Shown in pieces: positions 41,801-64,000 of a stretch of DNA of 64,000 bases. The notes beneath the pieces were generated by a model that made no database searches, was not told the DNA's origin, and worked only from the letters and a program-made list of their open reading frames with translations. Source of the stretch: an uncultured virus (IMG/VR IMGVR_UViG_3300030708_001148) (lineage: Duplodnaviria > Heunggongvirae > Uroviricota > Caudoviricetes); the IMG/VR virus record IMGVR_UViG_3300030708_001148, one strand, 5' to 3'. The translations under genes and the position numbers were made by a program. How positions within the stretch are numbered: the first letter of the stretch is position 1; each line of letters opens with the position of its first letter.

Positions 41801-42862
41801 TGTTAGGTTTCCACCAACTATCAAACCACCTGCAAATGTAGCAGTATGTGCCGCATTTGACCCAATTTGGAAGTTATCTCCCATATTGGAAGCGAGTCTA
41901 GTCTTGAGATTAGCAAGTGAGACATCAACATCAGTATTGGTATCTGTTTGATGAGTATCAATCATGCTTTTTATGTCAGCAGGGGTAAATCTCTTGATAG
42001 CGGTAGAATTACCCGCAGTTCTCTCAGCAGAAGAAACTTGAGGAACTCTATTATTGTAAGCAGTTTCTATTTCTGTATCTGTTTGGTCAGCAGTAGCCCC
42101 ATCTTCTGGGTCTGTTGACCAACTGTATAGAGCGTTGATGTCAGATTTTGTCTGGTCAGCAGTAGCGTTTGCCTCTATACCGTCTAATTTTGTAATTTGG
42201 GTGGCTGTAGCCAATCCTGTTTGACTAGCAGTAGCATTGGGAATTGCCGAAGTGTACTCTATATCTGATGTAAGTGCAATGGTTCCTGTTGAGGAAGGTA
42301 GAGTTAGAGTGGCTCCTCCCTTTGTTATTGTTCCTGCGGCGTTTAGTCTAACGGTTTCTGAACCAGAATCAATTATACTTAACCCCTGAGTAGTTTGGCT
42401 ATGTCCTAAGAACTGCACTGGTCTATTTATCAAATCATCAGCACTATTTGCTACATATTTTACTATGGCAACAGGAATATCTCCTGCTGTCAAATTAGAT
42501 ACAGAAGCCGTGCTTCTTGTTTGTGCATCAACTCTTATTGCAAGAGCATTTGACGAGTTTACGACAATCATGGCATACCAATCATTTCCGCTTCTAGGAC
42601 CAACTGATGTAGTTAGGGTAGCATTTGATATGTCTACTAATAGACCGTCACGGAACACCTTTCCTGCCGCAACTACGTATTTAGTGTAACTAACACTAGC
42701 ATTGGATTGTGTTATGTTGAAACCACTTACTGTCCTATTACCTGCTGTAGCCTCATTTAGAGCATTTATGATTCCACTGTGTATATTGTCAGTACCATCT
42801 ACTATTCTAGCATCTGGAGTAGTGTGCAATTTGGAAATAAACCCCGGATTATCGTTTGACAT
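32828..42862 (-). CDS. Giant tail fibre/adhesin, 3344 aa
   Basis: T/S/G/A/D-rich, internal repeats, VGIGT..P repeats, C-terminal KSFDIEHP...LEGPE...LPDYW domain common in marine phage fibres. Confidence 0.82.
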   Translation of the reverse strand: MSNDNPGFISKLHTTPDARIVDGTDNIHSGIINALNEATAGNRTVSGFNITQSNASVSYTKYVVAAGKVFRDGLLVDISNATLTTSVGPRSGNDWYAMIVVNSSNALAIRVDAQTRSTASVSNLTAGDIPVAIVKYVANSADDLINRPVQFLGHSQTTQGLSIIDSGSETVRLNAAGTITKGGATLTLPSSTGTIALTSDIEYTSAIPNATASQTGLATATQITKLDGIEANATADQTKSDINALYSWSTDPEDGATADQTDTEIETAYNNRVPQVSSAERTAGNSTAIKRFTPADIKSMIDTHQTDTNTDVDVSLANLKTRLASNMGDNFQIGSNAAHTATFAGGLIVGGNLTVNGTTTTISSNTLAVGDNTIVLNNDVTGTPSQNAGVAIERGSATNVDIRWNESSDRWEFTNDGTTYYNLPTTSELANPYTHPLYGTTDIDTSGAEIVDAIATNDTGHITAMSKRTLTLGDLGYTGATDANKYVHPNHSGDVTSSADGATTIANSAVTSAKIADSAITNAKINNGAIDNAKVSNSAAIAQSKISGLTSALSGKEPSLTIGDGLDRTNATLKVDIDGLTIENGMDRSADFIMYDDATNGLRRINPENLFSKLIASDIPDVSATYRATATTLVNADISNTAAISADKIADGTTNKVFTTTLKTKLDGIAASATVGADWSSNVTNISVTNAQLAGNIANSKLVNSGVTLNGNTLNLGGSLTLDTDDFAEGSNKYYTDERVDDRVNALITDGEGITTTYDDSAGTLTVDAEIATSSNRGVASFSSDHFVLNSGNVAIKDSSITNQKLAGSIAQSKVTDLVSNLASKAPIANPVFTGSITIGDASLTEAELELIDGVVGTLTTTELGYLDGVTSPIQTQLNAKLESVALSDLTDNLSLVSGINDSNTHNQIPTARAVKNYVFSQEIKSYDLILAENGDNARIKLQDNLGDLTNFVDLNAGTDISLDVDPTQRNIRITNTGKGHVASASYNQGTLTLTHRDGTTTTATIPDSTTDAHGLMTDDQFDKLAAIEELADVTDKANVVASLGLLDETDTLYVGDSGNDTTVRIRGNLFVDGTTTTINQTEINVQDALVFEGATSDDYETTLRIIDPTADRTISLPDVTGTIVTTGDTGTVSSGMLASASVITSKINSGAVTTGKLGTSAVTTAKIADDAVTGAKIDFIDDSIAVTDTHIMIADGTDYNNVAVSGDATLANDGALTIANSAITTAKINGLAVTTGKIAADAVTSAKIADDSIDSEHIVDGAIDTAHIGNNQVTVAKISGLSDLGSGTVISSAERTKLSGIETSADVTDATNVAAAGALMDGDFTSNGFLKRTGAGSYTVDTNTYLTSLSVTGLSDINQLEQNLASITDDHAGLVTAKAVKAYVDSIPGGVGGMSFVLEDGDGTELTVANDKEIKFVPSSLLTINWTDVDNGTDADPYDLTFTVDNDLANYSNTNSNFTTTTALDNATAATAITGKALTNLDTSSGGTVAATDTILAAFGKLENRVALNDAKVTNTDVNVSEANLRSRLTDITESVTIGDGTDVTLTTSGALVVTGNLTVNGTTTTLDTTNLAVEDKNIVLASGNSASGVLDGTGFTFEGGSSDDITLQTASNVLELKLGSNYGSMKAGTFTGDLTGDVTGNADTATLATSVTVSANNSTDETVYPLFVDGATGTQGAETDTGLTYNPSSGLLTVGGLTTGGTVQYGNLSDGSITVTAFESTLTNGATLVPTSAAVKTYVDAQVDTVDSLGEMSNVTLSNVAQGHIITSDDSGVFSNRTLTAGTNVSITNASTGAITIASTDTTYTAASNNGLVLSGTAFSIDDPVNTNITLMSSGADGAATNPAQRTANTADQLLVWDDSEDEWAYINLAHLADFAVDNGGAGGIKAFKTISVSGQDDIVADASADTLTLTAGSGITIANTAASDTIAFSVANGDISNAMLANDSVSFGGVSLDLGESDATPAFDLTDATNYPTSSLTGTITNAQLAGSIANSKLANSSITVSDGSNSTATALGGTITFSGTSNEIEVAESSGTVTIGLPDAITGLGSLAINNAGSAGYKLDVQSGTMDSIARFKSADANGRILIQDNDDTVYVGTTSGYGYFGGTQNLGSGANLVIHKTTGNVGLGSTSPSTKLHIADDTTSLFTGLLVENEGTEGNSSTVAGIEIKNSAGTDSSTHIEQDAFGQTMMYTGQGSKNRFLLVSADASTFTVDGDLKLGGNDIKASDGTTAITTSGANVTVAGTLTATVTGDVTGNVTGNVTGDVTGNITGDVTGDVTGDLTGNADTATLASTVTVSDSTANTNFPVVFHDESNALLDDTGALRYNPSTGTLLVPNLNVAGTTTQVNTVTMEAANAIVFEGATSDAYETTLTITDPTADRTITLPNATGTIALTSDVTSASGDGLTLANGADNRIVTATGAAALNGESSLTYGGTDLKLASATPRIYLGDTDNTSGGSTGNMLLISKSGSQSYIRDRQSGSKLNLGASDVTSIMVLDGDTERVGIGTASPRSNVHIEKTAYDYDTTVTDDDLHLLVKATENSTAGDAVSIGFAQSSNVDPGAVGAKISHVVSGSFSAGDLTFSTNANTTTGGDKTTEKMRITSDGKVAIGTTSPQSKLHISSGTSGDAVLILEADTDNNSETDQPFIVFEQDGGTQHSAIGSHSGSNTDNNALILSNSVSSNGIEAGMIFKTGTTSGYANAVERMRITPTGDITMTEDLDVAKHFSFDTQHVGGSAGGSTGTENGANTWCKILEWNPGTNQYRDLSLTLGITCVDVGSQNQAIINVYGRSNGTNSAHTMGIKILSLTSSSALRDDSFKMITEGWGQPIELWMKKYASYTTWNWNEIAKKVGGSTTLTYSSNSAWQSTEPVKTNGSPQAVRSFGTVIEGRQSALNLYHNQNVSQLSANDVLSTISFRKHTGHGGNETIRIYNVHGNSGQSDGVTDDYHTSDLRVSTRKIGTNSLTDRFTILGQEGYVGIGTMTPSAPLTISADTDGGDTVRIEGLDANGNLSTPDLTLVRTNGAPGANTFLGHLHFKGYNNANPVEEITYASIAGQVDYGNDGQEKGRLKFYTHVNGTNTNTMTIDEANVDIPSDSGKLRVGADADMAFYHDGSTGYVDNDTGTLRLQAAGEVWFDAGGSNIARIKSGEVFSFRDVNINDKVTLDADTGAIATTMSGTTGNGLKVLRNQSSSNMDSPLVFFHDDSQYADEAVLHVKQDGTGIGVKVDGSLIATTKSFDIEHPTKEGKRLHHGSLEGPEHGVYIRGRLEGDVIELPDYWLGLVDEDTITVQLTPNKGFQQIYVDHIEDNKIYVGTQTDIPIDCFYFIQAERKDIEKVEVEYDAVV
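36010..36116. repeat. 12 bp degenerate tandem repeat coding (GD/GN)(V/I/L)T
   Basis: Repeated tcaccagtaaca-like units; protein TGDVTGNVTGNVTGDVTGNITGDVTGDVTGDLTGN. Confidence 0.85.
39060..39480. repeat. Decapeptide coding repeats (A-V-T-x-x-K-I-A-D-x)
   Basis: AVTTGKL, AVTTAKIADD, AVTGAKID, AITTAKIN, AVTSAKIADD; a second copy lies near 41240-41360. Confidence 0.75.
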
Positions 42863-43200
42863 TAACTCACCTCCATGCTAACTGTAAATGTAATCGTATC
42901 TGCCGAGGGGATTACTCCTGTATTTGTGAAAGTAACTCTACTCAAGAGTTTATCCCCTGATGTCTTGAAAATTCCTAACTCAGAAACACCTTGATTACCT
43001 ACTTCTGCGCCTGTAAACTCAGCAGTCCAAACCAATTCTGAACCTATTACAGAAGGAGTTACCACTTTACTAGCAACCACAGCGTCTAACTCCGTTTGAC
43101 TAGCCGCAGTATCTCCCCCTCCGTTTCCTATTTTTACCGTAGTGTATTGTGCCGCAATATATGCCAACGCAATATCCTCACTTCCCTCATTAACTATCAT
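42862..43200 (-). CDS. Small baseplate/fibre-attachment protein
   Basis: IGNGG...QTEL...SELGIF...LLSRVTF resembles tail-collar/fibre N-terminal domains. Confidence 0.6.
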   Translation of the reverse strand: MIVNEGSEDIALAYIAAQYTTVKIGNGGGDTAASQTELDAVVASKVVTPSVIGSELVWTAEFTGAEVGNQGVSELGIFKTSGDKLLSRVTFTNTGVIPSADTITFTVSMEVS

Positions 43201-46200
43201 TCTACTGTACCTCCATAATCATCTTGTTCATAGAACTTGTCTCCATAACTCTTCTTAGTCACTGTACTGTGTTCAAACCCTACTTCTTCTGTAAAGCCTA
43301 CTAAATCATCAAAACCCATGTTAGAATTATAGGACAATGCATTCGATGACCCTGTTACCACATAGGAAAGTCTTGTGTTTTTTATATTAATAACATCAGA
43401 AAGGTGTTTACCTGCTGAAATCTTCATAGAATCTTTCTGGAATAAGGATGAAAACCCATCAGATTGTTTAGTATTCAACTCACTTAGTCTTTCAGCAATT
43501 GACTTGTCAAAAGTACCTACTGTCATAGTCAACATTCCTGATAAAACGTTAGTTATTTCAAAAACTTGATAGTCATCATTTGGAATATCATGATTTGGAA
43601 AATTCAATCTAACTATGTCTCCTGCCTCTAGTAGTTCTAGTCCTTGTTTATGCACTTTTATCGTAATTTTACGATGTTTCTTGTTATGTAGTTTTAACAA
43701 TTCAACTGCTCTAATTTCTGCATCAGTCTTTGTTTTTATTGTTGGGTCCACTTCTTGAATTACTCTAGTTTGTTTGTTTGTAGACCTCTCTAATTCATAT
43801 TTTATTCTATCACCTATGATGACTGCTTTGTTGGCAGTATCGAAAAGAGAAGTGTTATTTTCAACAGAAATAAGTCTATCCGATTCTGCGTATGATAGTG
43901 AATATTTGCGTAAACTACTCGTATCTTCTATGTTACTCGCACTAAACTTACCGTTTCTAATATTGTAGTCCAATCCGTTCTTAACCGCTAGAGAATTGAT
44001 GGCAGTAAATAGGTTAACATCATCGAATTTTAACGCAGAAACGTATGTTTTCTTGTTTATCTTGATTAGTTCGTCATGTTGTACTGGAGTGAATTTTAAG
44101 TTAGTTGTGAAGGTTATAGTTTGAGAGGAAATACCCTGTATTTCACCTACCAAATGCCCATCATGGGTGTACAAAACATCACCCGCAGAAATGTCCTCTG
44201 GAGTAGCCGAACAGACTACTGTATTAGAGGTCGCACTAGACACAATATTGCCTGTAGGTGTGATAAAACTACGTAAATCATCATATTCTAATCCTACCTC
44301 TTTGACTAGGTTTTCTATCTCGTCATTAACATTTGAAGCAACAGTAAAACCTGTACCGATATGGCATTTTTTGATGTTTTTTAGGTTAGGTCGCCTACTT
44401 AGTGCAATATCAAAAACTTCACCGAATGACACTACACCGTTGCCAAATAATTGCCCGTCAAATTTCATGCCCAAACCCGGTATTTTAGTGAAATTTATAC
44501 TTGTATCGAAGGCAGTAGATTCATCTCTATCTAAGGGAAAGAAGTCTGTGAATGTTATATTTTTTACAGAGGAATTTAAGCCATCCGTGACGTTCATTGT
44601 CTTCTGAACCAACGTGGTTCCGGTTCTCTTGAATTTGTGTGCGGCTTGACTTGGCTCCCTTACATCAATAGTAGAATTATCATAGACAATATGATTAGTC
44701 TGTGTAGTATAACCATCGTTTGTCAAAGTGTTTTCAGTCTGTGGAACTCCATCAACATCCAACAGTAAGAACATCTGATACAGGCTCTCTCTATAATGGT
44801 GTATTGCACCAGATACGCTATCTGTATCTGCTCCAGATTCCCCAGTGAGGAAACTGCTTCTGGTAAACCTACTAACAGGCTCCATGACATTGAATCTGAT
44901 GGAGTTTTCTTCACCGTTGAACGTTACCTCCGATGGACGCATGAGTCTAAATCTATGAGTAGTAGAGAAAATTGGTTTTAATGGCACATCTATCTTAATT
45001 GTGTGAGTTTCATGATTACTTATTGTAGGTGCAGTTGAGACTGTATGTGACGTTATCCTAGTAATGGCTCTGGGAGCATCAACCCTAGTTGAGTTTCTTA
45101 AATCGCCTCCATTAGCCTTCTCTTCACTTACTAGGTAGTATCCTGTGAGATTTGGTAGGAAACTGAGGAAAGTGTGTTTACTGGAATTATTCAAGGTAAA
45201 TACCATAGTGTCTCCTATGCTTGTATTAGTTCCATTTGGGAAAGCCAAAGAGGTATCTGTAGCACCAACCACATAGTTGCTTCCACCAGAAGTTGCCGCC
45301 TTTAGTTGAAATACTGGTTTTATTGCCATTTGTGCGGATACGACTAGTCCTTCATTGGCGGCATCAGATGCAAACTCAGTATGATGATTTTCTTGAGTCT
45401 CTGTGGAAATTGCCTTCTTTTCGGATAAGAAATGTGATTCAGTTCTAGTTCCTATCATAGCAACTGTATTGTTAGCATCATACTCCGCTACCTGCACGTT
45501 TCTATCATGCTGGTCTAAGTTAGCGTTAGTTGCTTCTGCCACGTAATCAACGTAATTCGCATTAGTATCCAACGCCAATGGTGCGCTAGTTATCTCTATC
45601 GTACCGGGGTCAATCGTATTGTCTGTCATTGCAACCTTTACGTCTTTGAAAACACCGATGCATCCCTCATATGGATGAGCAAATGGATATGTTCCATAAC
45701 CTAGTCCATATTTGTCTTGATGACTGATTGTGGTTCCTGAATCAGCACCGAATTTAGCACCTACAAGTGCATTTATCACTCTGGATGTATGAAGCCAATT
45801 AGTGTTTTGATTTGCCCAATTATCCGGGTGATGAAATGGAGATATCTCTTTGTTCTCATATGTAGAATCATCAGACAATTCACCTACGATTAACGGTAGA
45901 ATTATGTTATGAGCAGAGAAAGCCTCTCCATTGTCTTCTAGATTTGCAAACTCAAATATTCCAGTATGAGTGAAAGGTCTAGTAATGTATACGTCAGTGA
46001 ATCGGAAGTCATGTCTTCGATTTGACCTATTTACAGTCATATGATTAGTACTGGATGATGGTTTGCTTATCTTATCTAACAAGAAGGATTGGTTCGTATA
46101 GACATAGAATGGTTGAACACCGTAGTATTTTATCGTCCCACCATCATCATAACCATCAAATTGCCAAATATCATTGTATATTTCTGTGTATCCGCTTCCG

Positions 46201-49200
46201 TTTAATGTTGATGCATCTATGAGATTATTGTTACCAGAATCAGTATTAAAAGAACCAGAAGAACCGCTTTCCTTTACTGCTATGAAACCGTTTATCTGGT
46301 CTGGTGAACCAGCAAGTGTGGTGTGTTCTCTAAATGGATTTGACCCCATGTAGTCAGTAGTGTAGAACATATCTCCAAGTGTTTGTGTGGTAATGTTAGT
46401 GCTAGACACATTTACATTCGCACCATCAGTTTCCCTTAGTTGAATTGTTTTACCAGTCAACTGGTCCGGGTTCTCAAACATTACATAATCAAAATACGGA
46501 ATGGTGGGTATGGATTCTGATGCTAGTGTATTCTCCAAATCTACAGGATTAAAATGCCAGTCAAAGGTAGCCTCAACTAGTCTGATAACACCAAATCTAG
46601 AGATTTGATTAGTGGTTTGAGTTGCACTACTAATGCTTACAGATTCAAAGTTATTTTCAGATTTAGCAGTCTGTCTAGTAGTACCAACATATTCCTCATG
46701 TATGACAGTATCTCCTACTTCATCCTCATCCGACTCCAATAACATAGAGAAGTTTTCATAATTTAGAGTATGATATCCAAGATTGTTATTTCTGTTATTA
46801 GAAGCGGGTAATAAGTCACCAATGCCAAACCAATCGTAGTAGTCTGTTCTAGCGTCAATCTGTTCAAATGCTTCGTAATCAATATCATATTCAAACGGGT
46901 CGCCTGTGTTCAAAGCATTAGGATAATACGATTTTATCAGGTTCGGAGTATCCGGGGTAGTAGACGAATCATATGGTCCATAGAAATTACCGAGATGATT
47001 CCACCCATCTAACGTATTGCTTCCATTTATTGGTCTATTCGTGTTTGAACTAGTGACGCTGATTTTTGAACCATCTGCTCTCACTCCATATCCTACTGCA
47101 TATCCTTGTATCTTTTGAGGACTAACTCCAAAGTTATAGATTGAATCGTATTTTCTGTTTATCGTTCCGGGGTTTATTTTTTGGAAGTCCCAATATCTTA
47201 TGCAGTTACCATCAATGTGGTCATTGTAGGAATTACCTACTCCTAACTTATGCACGAAGCCTCCAGTATTCAAATTAGCATTCACGAAATACAATGAGCA
47301 GTTTCCTCTTGTATCAGAGGAATTAGATGCTACTCTTCCCATGACCACAGGGAAAGTAGGAGCAACACTGATAGTTGTTCCACCCTCTATCTTTTCATTT
47401 ATCGTAACTACATCAAAGGTTTCTTGTTTTACTGTACCAACGCTATTATGTGTGACACTAACACCATTTTCATTTCCTATTTTTATTGCAAAATTAGAGT
47501 CATTTGCATCTATATTCTTGGGTGATGTAATGTCATATCCCAATGTTTTATCTTTGAGAACTCCACCAGTGTTTGATGTACCTACTAAGTTGTCAGTAGT
47601 AAACGTGCTATTGGTATAATATGCATTAGCACTATCTGGAGAAATCAACCTAACTCCACCATCAAAGACTAGTCCTTTACCACTAACAGATAAGTCTGCA
47701 ATACCGTCTGTAACGTTTGGATTACTACCGAGTGCCTTAGTTCCTGTAATGTATGTGGTGTGAGTAGTATCAGTGCTTAGATAAGCATACGGATGAAAGT
47801 ATTTTAGATTCACACCTGAGTTATTGAAAGTAACTTGAGGCGGTCTGAATAGGGTAATTTCTTTGGGTGATGTAGTAAATGACTTAATTTCGCCAACATA
47901 CTTTCCATCGTGATTCAATAATATACCAAAAGGCTTGAGAGTTATACCGCTAGTAGTTCCTCCGTAAGTTAAAACGGAACCACTTACACTGATAGTTCCA
48001 ACAGAAAGTTCTGTTACATTATTGACAATGGGGTCATGAGATGAGTGATGAATATCTGATAATACTGCAGTATTCTTATTTATTGTCTGCGAAATTAACT
48101 TAGATGTCTCATCTCTACCATTAATGGAGTAGGTAGTCATTCCCATTTCGGTCTTACTGTTTGCATTCTCTATTATACCATCAAATACAGTATCGCTTAT
48201 TGCATATCCTCCAGAGTAATAATAAAATCTATCTTTAGACTCATTGCTTCTTTGATAGAAAGTTCTTGTAGTATCTTGTATCTTAGCGAATTTGTTATCC
48301 TTATCCGTGATATCTAATAGATTGTCATGAGAAGTATTAGTGACAAAAACTAACCTAGCATCGTTTAGTTTTGCATTGTTCTTATCAATAGTAACCCCAT
48401 CTATCGTAATTCTATCCGTAGTGTAGTCTATTTCAGTATCTGAAACTAAATCATAATTCAAGACACCTGTGTATGGTGGAACAAAAAGTGTCTTCTGACT
48501 TATTGAATGAACATTAGAACTGCCACTCCAAGTTGTTGCTGATTTTAACTTGGAATCCTTAACTTTTATTTTTTGAGTGCCACCGGATTGAGCATATACA
48601 GTATGAACAACGTATAGATAACCATCTACTTCAATTATATCATCAGCACTTAATTTATGTCTCAGGTCAAATTCCTTACTGATTTCCTTCATCTCTATGT
48701 TATCCGCAGTTCCAGTAACGCTACTCGCTTTACCCTCTACAGGATAATATTTCATACTAGAATTGTATATGTTTCTCTGAACAAGTAATCTGTCTTCTTC
48801 TTTTACTTTCAAGTGTGCTAAACCACTAGAATCTAACATAGAAAATGACGCTAATTGACTCATTTTGTTTCTAGGGCTGTTTAGATTAGCACTTTGCATC
48901 AATGGTAACTTATTGTTCTTGAAATCAGCCTTTTCAAATGTAATATATTTAGCAGGGCCAGTTAGATTTCCATCTAGACTATTAGAAGTATCGCTAATCA
49001 AATTGCTAGTATGCCTATGCATTCTAGGAAAACAAGTATTCCATTTATGTGCGTCTGTTATTTCATAGTCATCCGTTTTGTTAGTGTCTACAAGTACCGC
49101 ATCTAACCTGTCACTACCTAAATTTTGAATCGTATCGTTAAATCTACCCTGAGTTCTAAACACTACATTAGTACAAGTCTTCCCTACTTTGTTGACTTGA

Positions 49201-50309
49201 GTTCCAGAGAAAGAATTGATGGTTTGTCTAGCAAAATCAAGGAAGAATCTGTAATCTGAACCATCTTCACTAGTGTATTTTTCTTTTATAGTTCCTAAAA
49301 GACTTCCATCTACATTACTCCATAGCGATTGTCCTTCAACTAACTTTTCCCAATTAGTCTGAGATAATTGATAATACTTACTTGTGCTACCTGCTTCATA
49401 TTGAGCAAGAGTTCCAACTATATCTGTAATAGTAGTAGTGGTATTTTCCCACCATCTCAAGTGAGTGGCGTTGTATTTGGTCATGTAATCCAATTGATTC
49501 TTCTCATCTAGTCTATCATTATAGAAATACCAAGTAGGCAGACTACAAATATTCACTCTATCGTATTTAGGTGTAGTAGCACTAGTATCTCCTCTCAGCC
49601 CATAACTAACAGCAACGACACTTGTATCTGTCTTTGCTGGACCCTTGTATATCTCAAATTTAGTGTTCTTTGGTATGGCTGTGGGATATGATGGGCTGAA
49701 TTCTAATCCATCTCCAAATGTATCAAATGTGGTTATTCTTGTTACTTTAGCAAAGTGTGGTCTAACTTTATCATTACCTGCTTCAACTATCTGTGGGTTA
49801 ATGAGAATAAAATAATCATAGTTTTCAACATCTAATCCTATCTCATCACTATTTGGATAATCGCTAGTTGAATATATCAATCTCCTATTTGTCTCACTGT
49901 TTGTTGTTGATATCTCTGAATCCATTACTTTTATTTTAAAAGCAGGAGTTTCTTCATTACAATTTGCATAACTTGCTAGGTTTTCGTTAGTAGGTAGAAT
50001 TCTATTTCCTATTCTATCTGTTGCATCGTTTGATATTGATATAGCCCTAGAAGTATTTCTGATTTCCATAAAGTTAGCAGAATTTTTCAGAACATCATAT
50101 CCTGTCTGATTATGTTGTATGTTATTTTCGTACTTTAGATTATTTTGCACAAAAGTAGGATTGACAGAGACACTAGTGTATGCCTTACTTTCATGTGCGG
50201 TGTGACTATCATAATCATATGTGGTTCCATCTACTATGATGTCTTCATGTATACCCGAATTCAAAGGAAAAATAACTCGTCCAAATTCCTCTTGTGTACC
50301 CATATTCAA
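43197..50309 (-). CDS. Large tail tip/baseplate hub protein, 2370 aa
   Basis: Position after the tape measure and distal tail genes; hub-like motifs FDGII...YSINGRD and C-terminal LEAGDIV...YQVFEI. Confidence 0.65.
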   Translation of the reverse strand: MNMGTQEEFGRVIFPLNSGIHEDIIVDGTTYDYDSHTAHESKAYTSVSVNPTFVQNNLKYENNIQHNQTGYDVLKNSANFMEIRNTSRAISISNDATDRIGNRILPTNENLASYANCNEETPAFKIKVMDSEISTTNSETNRRLIYSTSDYPNSDEIGLDVENYDYFILINPQIVEAGNDKVRPHFAKVTRITTFDTFGDGLEFSPSYPTAIPKNTKFEIYKGPAKTDTSVVAVSYGLRGDTSATTPKYDRVNICSLPTWYFYNDRLDEKNQLDYMTKYNATHLRWWENTTTTITDIVGTLAQYEAGSTSKYYQLSQTNWEKLVEGQSLWSNVDGSLLGTIKEKYTSEDGSDYRFFLDFARQTINSFSGTQVNKVGKTCTNVVFRTQGRFNDTIQNLGSDRLDAVLVDTNKTDDYEITDAHKWNTCFPRMHRHTSNLISDTSNSLDGNLTGPAKYITFEKADFKNNKLPLMQSANLNSPRNKMSQLASFSMLDSSGLAHLKVKEEDRLLVQRNIYNSSMKYYPVEGKASSVTGTADNIEMKEISKEFDLRHKLSADDIIEVDGYLYVVHTVYAQSGGTQKIKVKDSKLKSATTWSGSSNVHSISQKTLFVPPYTGVLNYDLVSDTEIDYTTDRITIDGVTIDKNNAKLNDARLVFVTNTSHDNLLDITDKDNKFAKIQDTTRTFYQRSNESKDRFYYYSGGYAISDTVFDGIIENANSKTEMGMTTYSINGRDETSKLISQTINKNTAVLSDIHHSSHDPIVNNVTELSVGTISVSGSVLTYGGTTSGITLKPFGILLNHDGKYVGEIKSFTTSPKEITLFRPPQVTFNNSGVNLKYFHPYAYLSTDTTHTTYITGTKALGSNPNVTDGIADLSVSGKGLVFDGGVRLISPDSANAYYTNSTFTTDNLVGTSNTGGVLKDKTLGYDITSPKNIDANDSNFAIKIGNENGVSVTHNSVGTVKQETFDVVTINEKIEGGTTISVAPTFPVVMGRVASNSSDTRGNCSLYFVNANLNTGGFVHKLGVGNSYNDHIDGNCIRYWDFQKINPGTINRKYDSIYNFGVSPQKIQGYAVGYGVRADGSKISVTSSNTNRPINGSNTLDGWNHLGNFYGPYDSSTTPDTPNLIKSYYPNALNTGDPFEYDIDYEAFEQIDARTDYYDWFGIGDLLPASNNRNNNLGYHTLNYENFSMLLESDEDEVGDTVIHEEYVGTTRQTAKSENNFESVSISSATQTTNQISRFGVIRLVEATFDWHFNPVDLENTLASESIPTIPYFDYVMFENPDQLTGKTIQLRETDGANVNVSSTNITTQTLGDMFYTTDYMGSNPFREHTTLAGSPDQINGFIAVKESGSSGSFNTDSGNNNLIDASTLNGSGYTEIYNDIWQFDGYDDGGTIKYYGVQPFYVYTNQSFLLDKISKPSSSTNHMTVNRSNRRHDFRFTDVYITRPFTHTGIFEFANLEDNGEAFSAHNIILPLIVGELSDDSTYENKEISPFHHPDNWANQNTNWLHTSRVINALVGAKFGADSGTTISHQDKYGLGYGTYPFAHPYEGCIGVFKDVKVAMTDNTIDPGTIEITSAPLALDTNANYVDYVAEATNANLDQHDRNVQVAEYDANNTVAMIGTRTESHFLSEKKAISTETQENHHTEFASDAANEGLVVSAQMAIKPVFQLKAATSGGSNYVVGATDTSLAFPNGTNTSIGDTMVFTLNNSSKHTFLSFLPNLTGYYLVSEEKANGGDLRNSTRVDAPRAITRITSHTVSTAPTISNHETHTIKIDVPLKPIFSTTHRFRLMRPSEVTFNGEENSIRFNVMEPVSRFTRSSFLTGESGADTDSVSGAIHHYRESLYQMFLLLDVDGVPQTENTLTNDGYTTQTNHIVYDNSTIDVREPSQAAHKFKRTGTTLVQKTMNVTDGLNSSVKNITFTDFFPLDRDESTAFDTSINFTKIPGLGMKFDGQLFGNGVVSFGEVFDIALSRRPNLKNIKKCHIGTGFTVASNVNDEIENLVKEVGLEYDDLRSFITPTGNIVSSATSNTVVCSATPEDISAGDVLYTHDGHLVGEIQGISSQTITFTTNLKFTPVQHDELIKINKKTYVSALKFDDVNLFTAINSLAVKNGLDYNIRNGKFSASNIEDTSSLRKYSLSYAESDRLISVENNTSLFDTANKAVIIGDRIKYELERSTNKQTRVIQEVDPTIKTKTDAEIRAVELLKLHNKKHRKITIKVHKQGLELLEAGDIVRLNFPNHDIPNDDYQVFEITNVLSGMLTMTVGTFDKSIAERLSELNTKQSDGFSSLFQKDSMKISAGKHLSDVINIKNTRLSYVVTGSSNALSYNSNMGFDDLVGFTEEVGFEHSTVTKKSYGDKFYEQDDYGGTVE

Positions 50310-55840: not shown

Positions 55841-57484
55841 CTAATAATCTTGATTTATGATTGCCCACATTCCCTTATACTTGCAAGAATGCAATGTTCT
55901 TGCTGATAGTGTTAGATTCAGTTCTACTGGTCCCTTGTCTTCTGGGAAGGGGAAATCTACTGATTGAGTTATGAAGTCCCTGAGTTCTATCTCGATGAAA
56001 TCACCATCAGCAATACCTACATTCTCATCTGCTTGTAAGGTGTCGTCAGCATCCGAGTCAAACTCCAAATCCTTGCTGAATTTTAGTATTATCTTGTTGT
56101 CTGCACCTAGATGCTCTCCTTCCTGCCGAAGATAGTTGTAGATTTTCATATCTGTTACAAGCATCGTGAAACTCAAATCATAGGTTCTTTGCCCACCAAT
56201 GTGTGCAGAAACCATATCTTTACTGTAGTTTCCAATGTATCTGTGAGCAGTTAGGTTGTTATTGATAGTAAGACTTCCATTCTTTATCTTAGCCCAAGTT
56301 TGTCCGTAAAGAGTGATTGTGCCGTCTGAGTAGAAATAAGGCTCTACGTTTCTATCTGGATACATGGTGGCATTATCCCTGAAATTAGATAGTTTCTCTA
56401 GTTCATTCGTCTTACCGTTTCTAGGTGCATACCCAGAGGGAACATCAAACAACCTTCTGGACATCAAATCCAGAGAACACTTGAGTTCCTGTCCTTCCTC
56501 AAAGTTCATGGTAAAAGTATTGACTTGACAACCTGTCACGATTCTTGTGAAGATATCTGCATATGGGCTACTACCGTCTAGACCTCCTGTGTATCTGTTT
56601 TCGGTGGCTATATCTTCTTTCTCATAACTAACCTCAATTGCAAATGATGGAAGAGTTCCATCGTTTCTTTCCGTAAAGGTGTATAGCATGGCACTTGAAC
56701 CTTCATCCGTGTCTAACTTCTCTAAGTCATTGTATGCCTCTAACTCACCAGTCATTACTCCTTGACTCCAAGTGGTAGGGGCTGGAGGGAATATCTTGTT
56801 GCCTTCGACTCTGTATATTCTAGTACTATCGTGCGCGGGTACGGCAAATCCAGTGTATCCATCAGTAACTGCGGGTAAAACATCATCAGTTGTGTCAATG
56901 GAATCAATCCTACCTAATGCATAATACAACCAAGCACCATGATTCATCGAGATATCCATTGATACTCCTGTAACAGTAGAGCCTTTCTTGTATTGGTATG
57001 TGAGGTTTCTAGTTCCACCCAGAGCCAAGTTCATCTGTGCTATCTCAACTTCAAGTGAAGGAGGGGTGAAACTGTTAACCAATCCTAGCCAATTATCAGA
57101 AAGAAGCGTATAACTACCGTTTGTCGGGTCTACTGATACACAGGGACTACCGTAGGCTTCCAATGTAGCAGTTACAGTAGTAGCCCCAGATGTATCTTCT
57201 TCTAATGCAACCTCTGCATTCTCATCAAAAGTAAAGGCAGTAGCCGTGTTTGACTTGACCATGAAAGACATAGTTTTGCTTGAGCCTGTGATTCTAATCA
57301 TACAACCCTGATACAAATCTGGTACTAATACGTAGTTGTTAGTGAAATCTGTGTGAGGAGTCAATGTCGCTCCGTCTAAATCTGCATTATCACCCAAATA
57401 TATGCTAGTCTCTGGAATAAATGTGGCAGAAGCACCTGCACCCGACCACACCTCATTTTGAATTATACTGTTAGTCGTTGCCAT
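55841..57484 (-). CDS. Major tail tube protein
   Basis: LPSFAIE...GCQVNTFTM...GSLTINNNL...GQRTYDLSFT; position upstream of the chaperones. Confidence 0.78.
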   Translation of the reverse strand: MATTNSIIQNEVWSGAGASATFIPETSIYLGDNADLDGATLTPHTDFTNNYVLVPDLYQGCMIRITGSSKTMSFMVKSNTATAFTFDENAEVALEEDTSGATTVTATLEAYGSPCVSVDPTNGSYTLLSDNWLGLVNSFTPPSLEVEIAQMNLALGGTRNLTYQYKKGSTVTGVSMDISMNHGAWLYYALGRIDSIDTTDDVLPAVTDGYTGFAVPAHDSTRIYRVEGNKIFPPAPTTWSQGVMTGELEAYNDLEKLDTDEGSSAMLYTFTERNDGTLPSFAIEVSYEKEDIATENRYTGGLDGSSPYADIFTRIVTGCQVNTFTMNFEEGQELKCSLDLMSRRLFDVPSGYAPRNGKTNELEKLSNFRDNATMYPDRNVEPYFYSDGTITLYGQTWAKIKNGSLTINNNLTAHRYIGNYSKDMVSAHIGGQRTYDLSFTMLVTDMKIYNYLRQEGEHLGADNKIILKFSKDLEFDSDADDTLQADENVGIADGDFIEIELRDFITQSVDFPFPEDKGPVELNLTLSARTLHSCKYKGMWAIINQDY

Positions 57485-58032: not shown

Positions 58033-58340
58033 TATTTTATCTCCTTTACTTTTGGAGCCTTTGACATCTTAAATGACTGTATCATTTTCTTATTGGCTTC
58101 TAGCATCAATTCTTTAGATTTGATTAGGGATTGCCTTATTGCACTTTCTATTACCTCACTATCTGTACGGTAGTAATTTTCTAACCCATGTTCTTTCAGA
58201 TATTCTTCCATATCCATTTCTTTTCTAATGATGTCTTTTCGTAGAGTATCAATATCTGCGGCTTTGGTCATTAGTGCGTTTGCTTCCTCTATTGACATAA
58301 TATCAGTCCACGAATACGATAGTCTCCTTCTTACCATCAA
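58032..58340 (-). CDS. Hypothetical neck-region protein
   Basis: Coupled ORF; true start may be the internal Met (MSIEE). Confidence 0.5.
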   Translation of the reverse strand: MMVRRRLSYSWTDIMSIEEANALMTKAADIDTLRKDIIRKEMDMEEYLKEHGLENYYRTDSEVIESAIRQSLIKSKELMLEANKKMIQSFKMSKAPKVKEIK

Positions 58341-59439
58341 TTATCTTATTCGCTTCCTCAATCAATATGTCATGTTTTGCTCGTAAGTCAATGTTAGAGC
58401 CTGTCTCAGCAATTAGTATGGAGTTATCGTCATGACGAATGACTTCTGCCGCTACAAACTTGGTTGCGGCATCATGAATAGAAGCGGGTACTCTAGCATC
58501 TCCCGCAACATAGGATACCTTCAAGGAATGACTCCTACGGTATGGGTATTCTTGTCTGAATAGAACTATACCCTCATCAGATAGTTTCCAGAAGTCTTCG
58601 TTTCTACCTTGATTCTCTATTGTGGCAAAGTCAGTTACCGTACCAAATGTAGAAGTCAAGACGTTATTCTTTCCGTCATCTCCCGGCAAGAGAGAAGTAA
58701 TGCAAACAGTATCAGAATACTCTGTATCTACAGATGCATAGAAGAAATCAGAGACATGATAATTCTTGCCATTGACTACAATTGTACTTCCGCTTGATGG
58801 GTCTACTGCTATGATAGATTTAGCACTATTTTCCATTGTAAATTTAGCAGTCTTTGCCGGAAACACTTCATTGATGCAGTCAGCAATCTGACTTGCCGTT
58901 GTCTTAGGCCCGTAATCATCATAGAAATCTTGAACCAAAGATGTGTTCTTCAAATCAAACCTTAACTTGGCAGGTAGCCCTACTGTCAATGATATCGTCC
59001 AATCGCTTGTTGTTGCTGTTGAAGGAACCTTTAGTTTAGCCGTCACACCTGCTAAATCTACGTATTCGTTTCCTTGCCAAGCCTCCAATCTCAATATCTT
59101 CTGTATCTTTCGATGTTGTAATTTGATGAATCCTACGTAATCCTTCCACTCTCTAACAGGATAGTGAGCCAATCTGCCATAGTTGAAATCATGTACTTCA
59201 TTATGATAAATCAGAGGTCTGTAAGACATCTTGGTCTTCTCATCTATCTTATCCTCCACCCTTTTGATTATCTTTCCTACTTCTGCCTTAGTAGGAGTTG
59301 TATTAGTGCCAAATTGGGCTATTTGCAAGAGATTTGAGACATCTGTATGGGTAGTATAGTACCCATTACCCTCATCGTATTCTCCTGCGTTAATGTTTGT
59401 AAAATCACTAGGGGAACTAACCTTGCCCACCTTAATCAC
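58303..59439 (-). CDS. Head-tail adaptor/connector-like protein with an insertion domain
   Basis: YTTHTDV...IKRVEDKID, C-terminal VSYVAG...VPASIHDA. Confidence 0.62.
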   Translation of the reverse strand: MIKVGKVSSPSDFTNINAGEYDEGNGYYTTHTDVSNLLQIAQFGTNTTPTKAEVGKIIKRVEDKIDEKTKMSYRPLIYHNEVHDFNYGRLAHYPVREWKDYVGFIKLQHRKIQKILRLEAWQGNEYVDLAGVTAKLKVPSTATTSDWTISLTVGLPAKLRFDLKNTSLVQDFYDDYGPKTTASQIADCINEVFPAKTAKFTMENSAKSIIAVDPSSGSTIVVNGKNYHVSDFFYASVDTEYSDTVCITSLLPGDDGKNNVLTSTFGTVTDFATIENQGRNEDFWKLSDEGIVLFRQEYPYRRSHSLKVSYVAGDARVPASIHDAATKFVAAEVIRHDDNSILIAETGSNIDLRAKHDILIEEANKIIDGKKETIVFVD

Positions 59440-61822
59440 CTCTTCTGTTTCCTATCTTATCTATTAGTGATTTTAAGGTTTTGAGAGATTTATTCAATGT
59501 TAATAACAAAGTCTGATTCTTCTGTTGTAATGTTACTCTCCCTCTAGTTTTTGTTCTCTGTTGGGTAAATCTAGAAGTAGAACCTATGTCCCTTTGTAGT
59601 TCACCAGAAGGTATTGCCTTTACTACGGCAATGTCCTGTTTGATTTGCTTGTCTATTTTTATTGCTACTACTCTTCCAGTCTGTTCAAAGTCTGCTTCGT
59701 ATGGTGCAGTTTCCAAGAGATGCTTGAATCTGTTCCAGAATCGTTGTTTGATTATCTTTATCTTTCTAACATATTGTTCTGGTGCTTCATCTGGATAATC
59801 TTGTATGTAATTTTGGAATACTTCATCCGTAATGTAGGCTGTATCAGACATGTCAACAAGTCTAGGAGTAGTCTCATCCTCCGCATTATCAGATTCTTGA
59901 CCCTCTTCCATTATGTTGTCTAATTCTCTAGAATTAGACCTATAGTCACCTTCTAATTCACTAGGATTGATATCAGTAACTTGACGTTGTTCTTCCTCTA
60001 ATTCCTCATCTATATCTGAGTCAAATACTTGTGAATACTGATAATCAGAAGCCTCTTCCAATCTTTCCTCTATTTCTCCCGGCTCTGTCTCATCTACAAA
60101 ATTTTCATCTATCATGTATTCGTAGAATTTTATTGATGGTTTATCGAAATTAACCGATTCGTTATCACTAGTTATATCCTCAAGAAGTTCTCTATTCTTA
60201 TTGGCTTCTACCTTTTCTTGGTCTTTTATTTGTTTACTCCTAACCTTAGTTTTTGAAGTAGTTCCTTGTGTGAAAAGATTCTTGAAAGTTAATGGGTCAG
60301 TCAAATTCTTAGTTACGTTTCCAAGACTCATTTCATAATTCAAAGAGTACTCAAATATCAGCACTCCTAAGTCTAATGTCATGTCTTTGGGTACTAGATA
60401 TTCTTGTATCTCATAGTGATGTTCTGGTTTACTCAAAATATAACCGGACTCATCCCTTTCTCCAAAATTACCAGTTGTCTTTCTAATTGTATTTGAGATG
60501 AAAGCCTCCTTGAAATTTTCAGATTGTTTCAATGAGTTTAGATAATTAATAATTTTTTTCAAGTCATCGTAACTAGAATCTGGTTCATCAGTTGGCAAAT
60601 CATATGTTTCCCTTTCCGCAAATAGTCCAGTTGTTCTTATTTCACTTGATGCCTTATCTCCCATAATAGTTAATGAGTGTGTTCTAGGGTCACTAACAGT
60701 AAAATCTGTTGCCTTTGCACCACGATAACTTTCTTTTCCATCCTGTCCCTTCTTTGGGTTTTGCACATAGTAAACATCAAAGAAACCAGATTCAGGGTCT
60801 TCCATTCTCTGAGTTTCATAAGCCATTAATTCCTCTCTTTTGGTTTCTATTTTTCTTTTAGGAGTTCCATCTTCATTTTTTTCATTTGACGCTACATACT
60901 GTACTCTGGGTTTTCCTTCTATTTTGGTTCTTCTAATTCTTCTTGTCTTTTCATTTGTCTCTTTATCTGTAACTGTAGTTGACTTTAAATCCTTGAGTTT
61001 ACCAAAACCATATTTCTCAAACATCTTGTTCCAATACTCGTATGAATTAACAGTAACAACCATAGTAGGAGCATTACTGTTACCTTTTCTAGTCACACTA
61101 ATGGATTGTCTGAGAATATCCTCATCTATGAGAGGACTTTCAGTCATAAAGAAGTTCATCATTTCTACTTGTCTTGACTCTTCGTCTTCCCTGCTCAATG
61201 CTGGTTTCTCTACTTGAGGTCCATAGGGTAGTCTCATTGTTCCTCTATCATAACTATAGCCAACTAATTCGCTTCTGTTTTCAATCAGTTCCTTTATGGA
61301 CATATTGTCTAATGAGGGCACACCAGAATCAGATGATGTTATATTCATTTTTGACCTTAGATAGAACTTATCTCCATCTTCTACGTTAATCTGAAACTGT
61401 TGTTTTCTTTGCTCAAACTCTTCTCCATCTCGCACGACTTTAAATTTCTTGAGTAAGACATTCTCTCCACCATCATCAGAATAAAGTGTCATATTTTCTA
61501 TCTTATTTACAAAATTCAATAAAGCCCTACGCCAAGCATCATTGGAAAACTTGTATTTTTCCGTATTCATTTCTGTAAACCTATGGTTAAAGGTAATTCC
61601 TCGCATTGATTTCTTGGCCTTTTTCATGGTGTTTGTTGGGTTTTGAGCCAAATCATGTAGAATGTATCCTACCATTAACTCAAAAATTCTGTTTCTTGTG
61701 TTTCCCTCTAGTAGTTCTAAGGCACTACGGTCCAATGCTCTTTCTGGAAGTGCTATTACTTCTTTGAGGGCATTAGGTATGGTGTTACCTTCCTCATCTA
61801 CTAGTGGTATTCTGATGTCCAT
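59432..61822 (-). CDS. Hypothetical 796 aa charged protein
   Basis: Long ORF; E/D-rich C-terminal region. Confidence 0.65.
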   Translation of the reverse strand: MDIRIPLVDEEGNTIPNALKEVIALPERALDRSALELLEGNTRNRIFELMVGYILHDLAQNPTNTMKKAKKSMRGITFNHRFTEMNTEKYKFSNDAWRRALLNFVNKIENMTLYSDDGGENVLLKKFKVVRDGEEFEQRKQQFQINVEDGDKFYLRSKMNITSSDSGVPSLDNMSIKELIENRSELVGYSYDRGTMRLPYGPQVEKPALSREDEESRQVEMMNFFMTESPLIDEDILRQSISVTRKGNSNAPTMVVTVNSYEYWNKMFEKYGFGKLKDLKSTTVTDKETNEKTRRIRRTKIEGKPRVQYVASNEKNEDGTPKRKIETKREELMAYETQRMEDPESGFFDVYYVQNPKKGQDGKESYRGAKATDFTVSDPRTHSLTIMGDKASSEIRTTGLFAERETYDLPTDEPDSSYDDLKKIINYLNSLKQSENFKEAFISNTIRKTTGNFGERDESGYILSKPEHHYEIQEYLVPKDMTLDLGVLIFEYSLNYEMSLGNVTKNLTDPLTFKNLFTQGTTSKTKVRSKQIKDQEKVEANKNRELLEDITSDNESVNFDKPSIKFYEYMIDENFVDETEPGEIEERLEEASDYQYSQVFDSDIDEELEEEQRQVTDINPSELEGDYRSNSRELDNIMEEGQESDNAEDETTPRLVDMSDTAYITDEVFQNYIQDYPDEAPEQYVRKIKIIKQRFWNRFKHLLETAPYEADFEQTGRVVAIKIDKQIKQDIAVVKAIPSGELQRDIGSTSRFTQQRTKTRGRVTLQQKNQTLLLTLNKSLKTLKSLIDKIGNRRGD

Positions 61823-61823
61823 A

Positions 61824-62525
61824 TTATGCCAACCACTTTGCCCATGCGATACCCTTGCTCATTGCAGATGCTAGACCAAGACCGCTAGACGGTGGTGTGT
61901 AGGACATTTGACCTGTTTGTGGGTCTATCCAGTATGGATTATTCATGTTGTCATAACCCGCAGGTGGTATAGGATATCCAGATTGATTGTTGAAGGCCAT
62001 ATGTTGTTGTTGCATCATTGCATTTGCTTGAACAGAAGCGTTACCCCCAGTTATCATTGATGGGTCTACTCCACTAGGATTAGCAACAGGAGGCTGACTA
62101 CTTCCTTGTCCTTGTGAAGCAAAACCCTGAGATTCTAGATATTGTGCTTTAGCCATTCTTCTTTGCATTATTACTTCTGAGTTAATTGCAGAAGCAAGAA
62201 GTGTCTGTAGGTCTAGATTGATGTTAGCCTCAGTTATTGAACCCATAGCGGCAACTGCATCTGGAGACATCGTTATGTCACCATTGTTATTTGTTACAAA
62301 GGCCATTTGCGGTAGCATTTGACCCAATACTTTCTCTACTGTATCAGTCATTAACTGTGCTAATGCGGCTAGAAACGCTTCTCCATGATACTGGAAGAAG
62401 TCCTCTACGTGGTTCTCTTGCAAGGTCAACAGATTGTTCATTGTTTTGAACTGAGCCTGTTGGTTAGACTGCATTGTATTCATTAAAGTGCTATTACTAG
62501 TGCCAAATAATCCCATTTTACTCAC
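61824..62525 (-). CDS. Q/M/N-rich protein with a C-terminal amphipathic helix
   Basis: Low-complexity QQ/P/G/Y region; ends GLGLASAMSKGIAWAKWLA. Confidence 0.65.
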   Translation of the reverse strand: MSKMGLFGTSNSTLMNTMQSNQQAQFKTMNNLLTLQENHVEDFFQYHGEAFLAALAQLMTDTVEKVLGQMLPQMAFVTNNNGDITMSPDAVAAMGSITEANINLDLQTLLASAINSEVIMQRRMAKAQYLESQGFASQGQGSSQPPVANPSGVDPSMITGGNASVQANAMMQQQHMAFNNQSGYPIPPAGYDNMNNPYWIDPQTGQMSYTPPSSGLGLASAMSKGIAWAKWLA

Positions 62526-63195
62526 TTCCCTCTTCTTGTTCCTCTTCTATTTTTGCGCCCTCAGTCAATAAAACTTTCATTCTATCTCCTACCGCATTAT
62601 GTTCTATGATTAATCTGAACAACTCAGCCTCTTTAGTTTCTTCTGTTCCAGATGGAGGTTTAATTGTCCAACCCAATGCCGAAAGAGATTGTATGTCTGA
62701 TTCTTTCAGACTCTTTAGTGGCCCTGCTGACAATGGGTTTAGAGTCTGCATACTAGGAGCCTTTGGAATGTATGCGCTGAAAGACAGACCATGTTCCTCT
62801 GCTAGTATCTGTTGTTCCAGCATTTCGTACTGCCTGTGTATGGCCGCATGTTTATCACAATAAGTACCTCTCATGGGATACCCCTTGCGTACCTTGTGTA
62901 GTGGCAAAGGGGGTCTTAGATTATCACTAGCATCCCATACTTTGTGAGTACCGCACACTACACATCTATCTTTGATGTTGTATGCAAACTTGTATGGTAT
63001 TTTCAGAAATGTCTTGTTTTCTGGTTTCAGTACCTTTACTATTTCTTTCAACTGTTTCTTTGGCTTTACGCTCTTGTACTCATATGTGGTAATCGGTCCA
63101 GAAGACCTTGCGGCATCTAGTTTATTTAGAAACACGGATGAAGCCGTTGGTGTTTCTGCCCCTATTAATGAGGGCATCTGGTATTGCATTGACAT
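62518..63195 (-). CDS. Zinc-binding (C3H-like) protein
   Basis: CVVC...YCDKH. Confidence 0.62.
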   Translation of the reverse strand: MSMQYQMPSLIGAETPTASSVFLNKLDAARSSGPITTYEYKSVKPKKQLKEIVKVLKPENKTFLKIPYKFAYNIKDRCVVCGTHKVWDASDNLRPPLPLHKVRKGYPMRGTYCDKHAAIHRQYEMLEQQILAEEHGLSFSAYIPKAPSMQTLNPLSAGPLKSLKESDIQSLSALGWTIKPPSGTEETKEAELFRLIIEHNAVGDRMKVLLTEGAKIEEEQEEGSE

Positions 63196-63207
63196 GTGCT
63201 TCCCGTA

Positions 63208-63882
63208 TCAGTAGTCCTTTATCATTGTTAGGACACCTCTGTAAACCATCTCTGAGTCTGATTTAGCACTAACTATGTATTTGAAACAAGGTATTCCCTT
63301 GTCGTTTAACCTTTGCATTCCATCTCTAAATGCAGAAAAAATTGGGTGTTTCTCTATTGGCCCATTGTGGTCATACCTGTCTTTCCATAAATCGTATTTG
63401 TTAGCCCATATTCCTACTGCTAATGGATAATCAGATTCTCTTTTCTTCTTTCTCTTACCATTGGGTAGACTCCATTCAGAAGCACATATGGTATCAACGA
63501 GAAACGTCCAACACAACTGCTGTTCTATGTCATAGTGTTTGTTCATGTGCCTATCGTCTATCATGAAAATGATGTATTTGACTCTACGACTTCTCATATC
63601 GTGTATCCAATCGTTCCAATATGTCACTTGCCCACCGATATCAGCACTTTTTACAGTATGAGCATCACCATCTAGTTTGACATATTTCCTAGTTGCTCTA
63701 CCCTTGCCGACTGTCCTTTCTCTAATATCAGGAACCTCACCTCTTGTTCTGAGTTGGTGATTCATTGTGGTTTTACCTGCTTGGGTAGCACCGTATATTC
63801 CAAAGTTAATCGCATGTACCCTTTGATATATTTTGTTTAGTCCCTCGACTATCAGAATAGCAAACCCTGCCATCACTGACAA
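63208..63882 (-). CDS. Ras-superfamily (Arf/Sar1-like) small GTPase
   Basis: G1 GATQAGKT, G2 T (RTVG), G3 DIGGQ, G4 NKYD, G5 SAK; N-terminal hydrophobic/amphipathic helix. Confidence 0.88.
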   Translation of the reverse strand: MSVMAGFAILIVEGLNKIYQRVHAINFGIYGATQAGKTTMNHQLRTRGEVPDIRERTVGKGRATRKYVKLDGDAHTVKSADIGGQVTYWNDWIHDMRSRRVKYIIFMIDDRHMNKHYDIEQQLCWTFLVDTICASEWSLPNGKRKKKRESDYPLAVGIWANKYDLWKDRYDHNGPIEKHPIFSAFRDGMQRLNDKGIPCFKYIVSAKSDSEMVYRGVLTMIKDY

Positions 63883-63886
63883 GGTA

Positions 63887-64000
63887 TCACCACAGATGAT
63901 TCCAGAAATCTACTACTCCATTCCAAGCAATTGATAGAGTGTTTATTCCTGCTATAGCAAATGCTTGTCCCAATATAAAACTAGTAAGCGATGCTACTCC
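63887..64000 (-). CDS. Membrane protein, C-terminal part (truncated by the window edge)
   Basis: Hand translation GVASLTSFILGQAFAIAGINTLSIAWNGVVDFWNHLW-stop. Confidence 0.55.
   Translation of the reverse strand, partial: GVASLTSFILGQAFAIAGINTLSIAWNGVVDFWNHLW

Follow-up and report, generated by a model that had tools for sequence, protein, structure and literature searches.

Why would a head-tail virus of archaea carry a small GTPase with Arf-like features among genes for membrane proteins? The question is raised by a window of 64,000 nucleotides (64 kb) from the roughly 100-kb genome of an uncultured virus (IMG/VR record IMGVR_UViG_3300030708_001148). Judged by its genes, the window is part of a head-tail virus genome, that of a magrovirus (a virus of Poseidoniales). 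Replication genes occupy the plus strand up to approximately 26 kb, and the neck and tail genes are found on the minus strand, including the gene for a tail tube protein that marks a tailed virus (55841..57484, minus strand; PF18906, E 1e-16) and a head-tail adaptor-like gene (58303..59439, minus strand; phrog_442, E 0.0016). Magroviruses of group B have been characterized by a split PolB, a ribonucleotide reductase, a ligase in the structural block and a halovirus-like capsid (PMC5434244). All of these features were found: the window encodes two PolB pieces and the reductase, and a near-identical relative, L001, whose GTPase is 97% identical, carries a ligase-like gene (by motif), a protease-like gene and a halovirus-like capsid gene.

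Some details of this genome deserve mention. The two PolB ORFs (17114-18856 and 19745-20707) are separated by some 890 bases. The ligase-like gene, a type already reported for magroviruses in PMC5434244, encodes an 855-aa protein with an ATP-dependent ligase-like motif (L001:2762-5329); it is located among the head genes and is kept across the clade to which the window belongs. Two giant proteins are encoded as well, a fibre-like protein of 3344 aa (32828-42862) and one of 2370 aa (43197-50309) that had no match in a PHROG search.

The GTPase belongs to a block of five genes in the order TM1, TM2, GTPase, Cys/His protein and Q/M/P protein, often with an additional TM3. The sequence-only reading had placed one membrane protein upstream of the GTPase; there are in fact two, the second of which lies past the end of the window. 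Of TM2, a 74-aa membrane protein with one hydrophobic segment, the window holds the last 37 codons (63887..64000, minus strand; full gene in the relative, L001:9772-9996). The window's TM1 is expected just beyond, and its equivalent in the relative (L001:9338-9757) encodes 139 aa with two hydrophobic segments and a charged tail. Directly after the GTPase follow a soluble Cys/His protein of 225 aa without a known family (62518..63195, minus strand) and a Q/M/P/G-rich protein of 233 aa with a helical core and low-complexity arms (61824..62525, minus strand). The tight packing claimed earlier was confirmed, with 4 bp between TM2 and the GTPase gene, 12 bp between the latter and the Cys/His gene, and an 8-bp overlap between the last two genes. 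On the late strand of the window, short hydrophobic ORFs are absent beyond this module.

The partners of the GTPase yielded no match worth naming when scanned against Pfam, PHROG and the PDB. TM1 and TM2 had no family in Pfam or PHROG, and the best PDB matches reached only E 0.038 for the Cys/His protein and E 0.42 for the Q/M/P protein. The former had been read as a Zn-binding protein. The gene is there, but only a single Cys is invariant among 11 aligned members and the second Cys/His pair is missing from the proteins of clade E (see below), which leaves a putative and partly conserved Zn site. Likewise, the Q/M/P protein exists as described, but its amphipathic W-rich C-terminal helix has a modest moment (at most 0.34), and of 11 aligned proteins, that of the window is the only one to show it. 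We regard the Cys/His protein as a candidate regulator or effector and the Q/M/P protein as a candidate coat or scaffold.

The GTPase itself (63208..63882, minus strand, 224 aa) starts with a TTG codon, and Met4 is a possible alternative start. All five G motifs were recovered where they had been assigned: G1 is G31-ATQAGK-T38, G2 is R56-T57-V-G, G3 is D81-IGG-Q85 followed by W89 and W92, IIFMID occupies positions 104-109, G4 is N161-KY-D164 and G5 is S205-AK. The motifs G1 to G5 are conserved in the alignment of family members and, combined with the G-domain fold of the model, identify the protein as a small GTPase of the Ras superfamily. In the AlphaFold2 model (pLDDT 83.7), a helix spanning residues 3-22 precedes strand 1, as had been proposed, with residues 1-20 at pLDDT 57-73. 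The best N-terminal hydrophobic moment, 0.69, ranks second among the 39 window ORFs of at least 150 aa, and 204 of 220 GTPases of the family reach at least 0.45; an N-terminal amphipathic helix is thus predicted. The Arf-like motif details noted earlier are real in the window's protein but less uniform across the family. DxGG in G3 is found in 209 of 224 GTPases, whereas G1 contains AGKT in only 74 (VGKT in 110), and the catalytic position of G3 is Gln in 150 and Glu, His or Asp in 73 of the 224.

Is this protein an Arf? In architecture it resembles Arf and Arl proteins, including the ArfR/AArf proteins of Asgard archaea (PMC11914678; bioRxiv 2024.02.28.582541): it shares the fold, the DxGG with a downstream Trp (Gly at position 3 of G3 being an Arf/Sar1 trait), NKxD, SA and the N-terminal amphipathic helix. 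A Foldseek search with the model did not separate Arf, Rab and G-alpha. When the best 1000 chains were re-aligned with VIA, Arf6, Arl3 and Arl1 were leading at Z 18.1-18.4 (best row Arf6, Z 18.4, rmsd 2.4 over 161 residues), followed by the Asgard ArfR protein GerdArfR1 (Z 17.0) and by Rag, G-alpha and Rab5 (Z 16.3-16.9), so that the margin of Arf/Arl over the last three is small. A profile of 22 family members searched against the PDB gave GerdArfR1 first (8oun, E 9e-9), and Arl8, Arl3 and Arl5 were the next GTPases.

Membership of Arf/Sar1 proper is not supported. The Arf/Sar1 signature of Leu-Asp at G1 positions 2-3 (PMC11914678) is missing from the window's protein (GATQAGKT), and GLD occurs in 0 of 22 aligned members. 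The Pfam Arf profile PF00025 scores 16.3 bits against a cut-off of 22.3 with the window GTPase, although 7 of the 22 members match it at E 0.01 (best E-value 2e-15). In a phylogeny of 33 rows, the viral GTPases form a single clade (97 SH-aLRT), to which neither ArvA nor any of the ArfR-, Rag- and Rab-like sets from one Asgard genome belongs; this tree has deep branches without support, includes no eukaryotic Arf or Sar1, and has its groups labelled by motifs and Pfam scores. Compared with Arf/Arl, switch I of the viral protein is also longer, a basic insertion is present, a second insertion, rich in W, follows G4, and the catalytic Gln is variable; identity is 16-23%, and its gene resides in a fixed operon with membrane proteins. 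ArvA-type proteins score in the same bit range as Asgard ArfR-like proteins against the viral family. Because of the absent signature, the Pfam score, the separate clade and this equal scoring, we place the GTPase in a viral family of its own, which judging from these comparisons is neither Arf, Sar1 nor ArvA. Of the proposed Arf/Sar1-like nature, the Arf-like architecture is supported and the family membership is not; an Arf-type action is suggested by that architecture.

ArvABC (OapABC) is an archaeal vesiculating GTPase system in which ArvA drives vesicle formation (PMC10927574), and like the viral block it combines a small GTPase that has an N-terminal amphipathic helix with a fixed operon; the two also have the strand 1/P-loop pattern GIYG..VGKTTL in common. 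The best cellular matches in Thermoplasmatota, with 7 of 29 inspected, were five ArvA-type and two TM-fused GTPases at 23-27 bits. However, the ArvA similarity is confined to the N-terminal quarter (approximately residues 15-76 of the profile, 23-27 bits), the G3 of ArvA is DTPG, and the viral block has TM proteins of its own. OapB and OapC (PF09846, PF09845) were confirmed beside two of the Thermoplasmatota ArvA-type proteins and matched in these controls, but not in the viral neighbours scanned. The GTPases with fused N-terminal transmembrane segments (L427:34-840, L428:785-1933) form a long branch near the viral clade. Eukaryotic giant viruses also encode small GTPases, of the Ras, Rab and Ran types, and these were the top BFVD matches; they are at most 22% identical, their hosts are eukaryotes, and the best 50 BFVD matches included no tailed or archaeal virus. 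The automatic JGI name 'GTPase SAR1 family protein' appeared on 5 of 120 relatives among the matches listed.

The block was compared over a broad set of loci. IMG/VR scans with four overlapping queries gave 325, 287, 253 and 12 confirmed stretches, of which at most the best 80 of each were used, and a further 11 loci came from metagenomes and 6 from GTDB. One GTPase relative (P0013) had no IMG/VR match and is the source of the 11 metagenome loci; the distant relatives P0029, P0037, P0042 (which matched only itself), P0050 and P0059 stand outside the gene-context comparison. The loci fall into five clades (A-E) with GTPase identities of about 30% between them. TM1, TM2, GTPase, Cys/His and Q/M/P genes occur in the same order in all of them, and clades B, D and E add TM3. 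Counted over 224 distinct GTPase genes, with loci that have enough flank as denominators, TM1 is present in 188 of 188 loci, the Cys/His gene directly follows the GTPase in 200 of 202 (at least 2 kb downstream), the Q/M/P protein is found in 201 of 202 and TM3 in 138 of 202. TM2 was detected in 156 of 188 loci by profile; a permissive rule based on size and hydropathy, which had no shuffle control, detected it in 193 of 199. Between clades A and B, hhalign connects the Cys/His proteins (E 1.8e-7) and the Q/M/P proteins (E 1.9e-7), and by these profiles each soluble partner in the window's clade has its homologue in clade B. The TM proteins gave only E 0.025 (TM1) and 0.037 (TM2), and those of the window's clade appear to match the other clades by position, size and hydropathy only.

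The surroundings of the block are wholly different from clade to clade. Four settings occur: the block stands between the capsid and the neck genes, ahead of the terminase, behind thermosome and fibre genes, or behind glycosyltransferases. Since the flanks differ completely, the five genes travel as a unit. The position ahead of the neck genes stated in the sequence-only reading holds for the window's clade, with a variable gene of 796 aa in between (59432..61822, minus strand, outside the module), but not for other clades. This slot is hypervariable, with several unrelated clusters of approximately 410-975 aa and no gene at all in L047 and L057. In part of clade E, an acidic 256-aa gene is found between TM2 and the GTPase (L244:9229-9999).

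In a reverse test, records were picked by their capsid gene, and 12 of 13 contained the GTPase, although for 4 of the 13 this had been known beforehand. The only miss had about 10 kb available upstream, less than the 21-25 kb that the capsid-GTPase distance needs. A check of synteny had been proposed across magrovirus and halovirus genomes. In related viruses the GTPase is conserved with its neighbours; halovirus records contained no relative of the GTPase, though halovirus capsid proteins stand in the same GenBank phage collection. More generally, tblastn with the GTPase found no match in GenBank phages or plasmids. Two RNA runs of one sample yielded short contigs of relatives over parts of three module genes, mostly less than 90% alike, which are too thin to speak to expression or timing.

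Could the virus have picked up an ordinary host gene? A sample of 301 incomplete Poseidoniales genomes contained no ortholog. The only strong match was a virus contig of 106 kb that carries terminase and capsid genes; it comes from a single-cell genome of Poseidoniales, which supports this order as the host. Two weak matches were ABC ATPases. On this sample, the candidate of an ordinary host GTPase was rejected. Pfam Arf matched in 0 of 101 host genomes (incomplete, with controls positive in 9 of 14) and ArvA in 0 of 201 (also incomplete, in a search that had no positive control). Magrovirus contigs (L255, L256, L257 and L258) are located in GTDB bins that go by the names Maricaulis, Parvibaculum and Promethearchaeati; the first of these bins holds three. 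These matches, which contain the full viral block, are probably mis-binned virus contigs. A further 400 genomes from the phylum of the Maricaulis bin gave 0 matches. At the sequence level, the outcome that would have refuted the earlier reading did not occur: the protein neither groups with host GTPases nor lacks conserved neighbours in related viruses.

Among marine archaeal viruses, the block is not restricted to one type of virion. Head-tail viruses make up clades A, B and D. Three complete genomes with terminal repeats carry the module outside this type: G003 of clade C (140 kb; L266-L272) and G309 and G310 of a clade E branch (128 kb; L296 and L297), giving a range of 127-140 kb. Terminase, portal and magrovirus capsid profiles did not match in any of the three, while head-tail controls matched in 1 of 1 and 2 of 2 cases. 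G003 encodes a 242-aa ATPase that also occurs in each of the 4 further clade C records searched and aligns with the packaging ATPases of SH1 and P23-77 (hhalign E 8e-11 and 2e-8); tblastn found no match for it in GenBank phages. G309 and G310 share with G003 a 204-aa gene that is strongly conserved (50-100% identity in 19 loci), and in both genomes it is accompanied nearby by numerous small hydrophobic proteins and by an ATPase showing the same motifs. The 204-aa gene encodes a candidate capsid protein, in which the single jelly-roll fold of Halopanivirales-like major capsid proteins would be expected; its model in G003 was unusable (pLDDT 33.7), its profile reached at best E 0.007 against four known capsid proteins (VP4/VP7/VP16/VP17), and searches found nothing in the PDB and only unnamed viral clusters in the ESM Atlas. 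With an FtsK/HerA-type packaging ATPase present and terminase, portal and HK97 capsid undetected, clades C and E probably represent tailless, membrane-containing viruses. They recall the Halopanivirales (SH1, P23-77) in their stand-alone ATPase of about 240 aa, their many small membrane proteins and their lack of head-tail hallmarks, but differ in size (127-140 kb against 17-31 kb), in capsid proteins unmatched to VP4/VP7/VP16/VP17, and in carrying PolB, MCM, primase, thermosome and an RNA polymerase subunit.

What may the block do? Apparently unrelated virion types keep all of it, which makes an action on the host membrane more likely than one on the capsid, and its presence in G003, G309 and G310 without head-tail genes makes a capsid-specific role unlikely. 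Our leading explanation, put forward tentatively, is a GTP-timed membrane remodelling machine for virus exit, by lysis or budding. The five genes would form one late machine at the inner face of the host membrane that releases the progeny. A membrane patch would be marked by TM1 and TM2, joined by TM3 in viruses that have it; GTP loading would free the N-terminal amphipathic helix of the GTPase, which would insert at this patch; the Cys/His and Q/M/P proteins, as regulator and coat, could then bend the membrane until it is opened or budded, and GTP turnover would set the timing of exit. Membrane binding, partner roles, late expression and the purpose of exit are what we infer from the features described above.

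Several observations count for this reading. Exit is favoured by the late-gene position and by the lack of any further short hydrophobic gene on the late strand of the window. The order is the same in five clades and four settings at about 30% identity, and the N-terminal moment is at least 0.45 in 204 of 220 GTPases. The two nearest characterized families, Asgard Arf, which binds liposomes in a GTP-dependent manner (PMC11914678), and ArvA, act on membranes, and neither was found in the host genomes searched. The reverse test (12/13) also counts for exit as the best explanation. TM1 resembles holin-type genes, of which putative examples have been reported in Adrikavirales (PMC11706807), in its small size, two hydrophobic segments, charged C-terminal tail and late region, but it is coupled to a GTPase and two soluble proteins and has neither a holin family match nor an adjacent endolysin. 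On the other side, holin-type lysis works without a GTPase, and TM1, TM2 and TM3 of the clades scanned matched no holin family (holins being highly diverse). The catalytic Gln is replaced in about one third of members, and at E 0.025 and 0.037, hhalign does not show the TM1 and TM2 proteins of the clade that includes the window to be homologous to their counterparts elsewhere. Moreover, another lysis gene could lie outside the window, which covers 64 kb of about 100 kb, and the block may be a middle gene set in group A-type viruses, where it precedes the terminase.

The main rival to exit is a membrane-bound assembly site. Here the module would bend the cytoplasmic membrane inward, or anchor a scaffold on it, and so build a site of replication or assembly, which in the tailless group could also be the source of the virion's inner vesicle. 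We consider this rather unlikely, though it has points in its favour: Arf proteins bud inward, toward the side they occupy (PMC11914678), these viruses bring their own replication set and chaperonin, the low-complexity arms of the Q/M/P protein suit a scaffold, and the block resides among morphogenesis genes. Head-tail virions need no membrane, however, the haloviruses with related capsids gave no match, and with no cultured host, no compartment has been seen. An improbable second alternative is that the block remodels the host surface or cell cycle, with the GTPase as an MglA-like positional switch, in the form of superinfection exclusion, a division block or receptor shedding. Independence from virion type would fit any host-directed role, and exclusion systems typically involve small TM proteins; yet in the window the block runs in the same direction as the structural genes and lies close against them, as it does with fibre or terminase genes in other clades, and a roadblock (MglB-like) partner is absent from the Pfam scans. 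That the proteins are virion or ejection components which remodel the membrane at entry is very improbable: the window's clade has them between its capsid genes and its neck genes, which would fit, but other clades have the block elsewhere and viruses without head-tail genes retain it.

Taken broadly, we judge the chances to be evenly balanced that the virus-encoded Arf-like GTPase and its coat system constitute an exit (or compartment-building) machine of Poseidoniales viruses, common to two realms (head-tail magroviruses and the undescribed tailless viruses of 127-140 kb) and replacing membrane-shaping GTPases that the host is missing. The module is real, conserved and virus-specific, and apparently undescribed. 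A full-text literature search, whose scope excluded subscription papers and bioRxiv supplements and could have passed over a brief annotation, returned no description of it, and no paper that contained 'magrovirus' and 'GTPase' together. 'GTP' and 'GTPase' do not appear in the available main texts of PMC11706807, PMC10160649, PMC5434244 and PMC5894146, nor in the available supplements of the first three (those of PMC11706807 may lack its annotation tables). In the surface ocean, magroviruses rank with the most abundant viruses (PMC5434244), and the exit of tailed archaeal viruses is described as uncharacterized in the available text of PMC10791045; the block supplies five named genes with which archaeal virus exit can be tested directly. 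That archaeal viruses have an Arf-like switch accompanied by membrane partners of its own is also relevant to the origin of membrane-shaping GTPases. If the proposal is true, prokaryotic viruses possess a machine resembling membrane trafficking, and a third lineage stands beside Asgard ArfR and ArvA.

The complete genomes with a tailless-type packaging ATPase also offer a likely identity for the group D elements, unexplained since 2017. G003 encodes PolB, MCM, primase, thermosome, a resolvase and the largest subunit of RNA polymerase, and the same gene set was reported for group D by Philosof et al. in 2017, who found no morphogenetic block according to the available text (PMC5434244). G003-type genomes thus likely match group D, with a host suggested by the shared genes, and G003, G309 and G310 likely belong to a group of large archaeal viruses without tails that has yet to be described; our full-text search found group D nowhere described as tailless viruses. 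The RNA polymerase subunit, unusual in an archaeal virus, comprises Rpb1 domains 1-4 and is split across our 20-kb pieces (L268:2-3523 and L267:18529-19965, both minus strand). G003 also encodes very large proteins that chain nucleotide-metabolism domains (L272:11318-17944 and L272:396-3200), among them guanylate kinase, Ham1 and DUF5824, and NUDIX with a HAD phosphatase.
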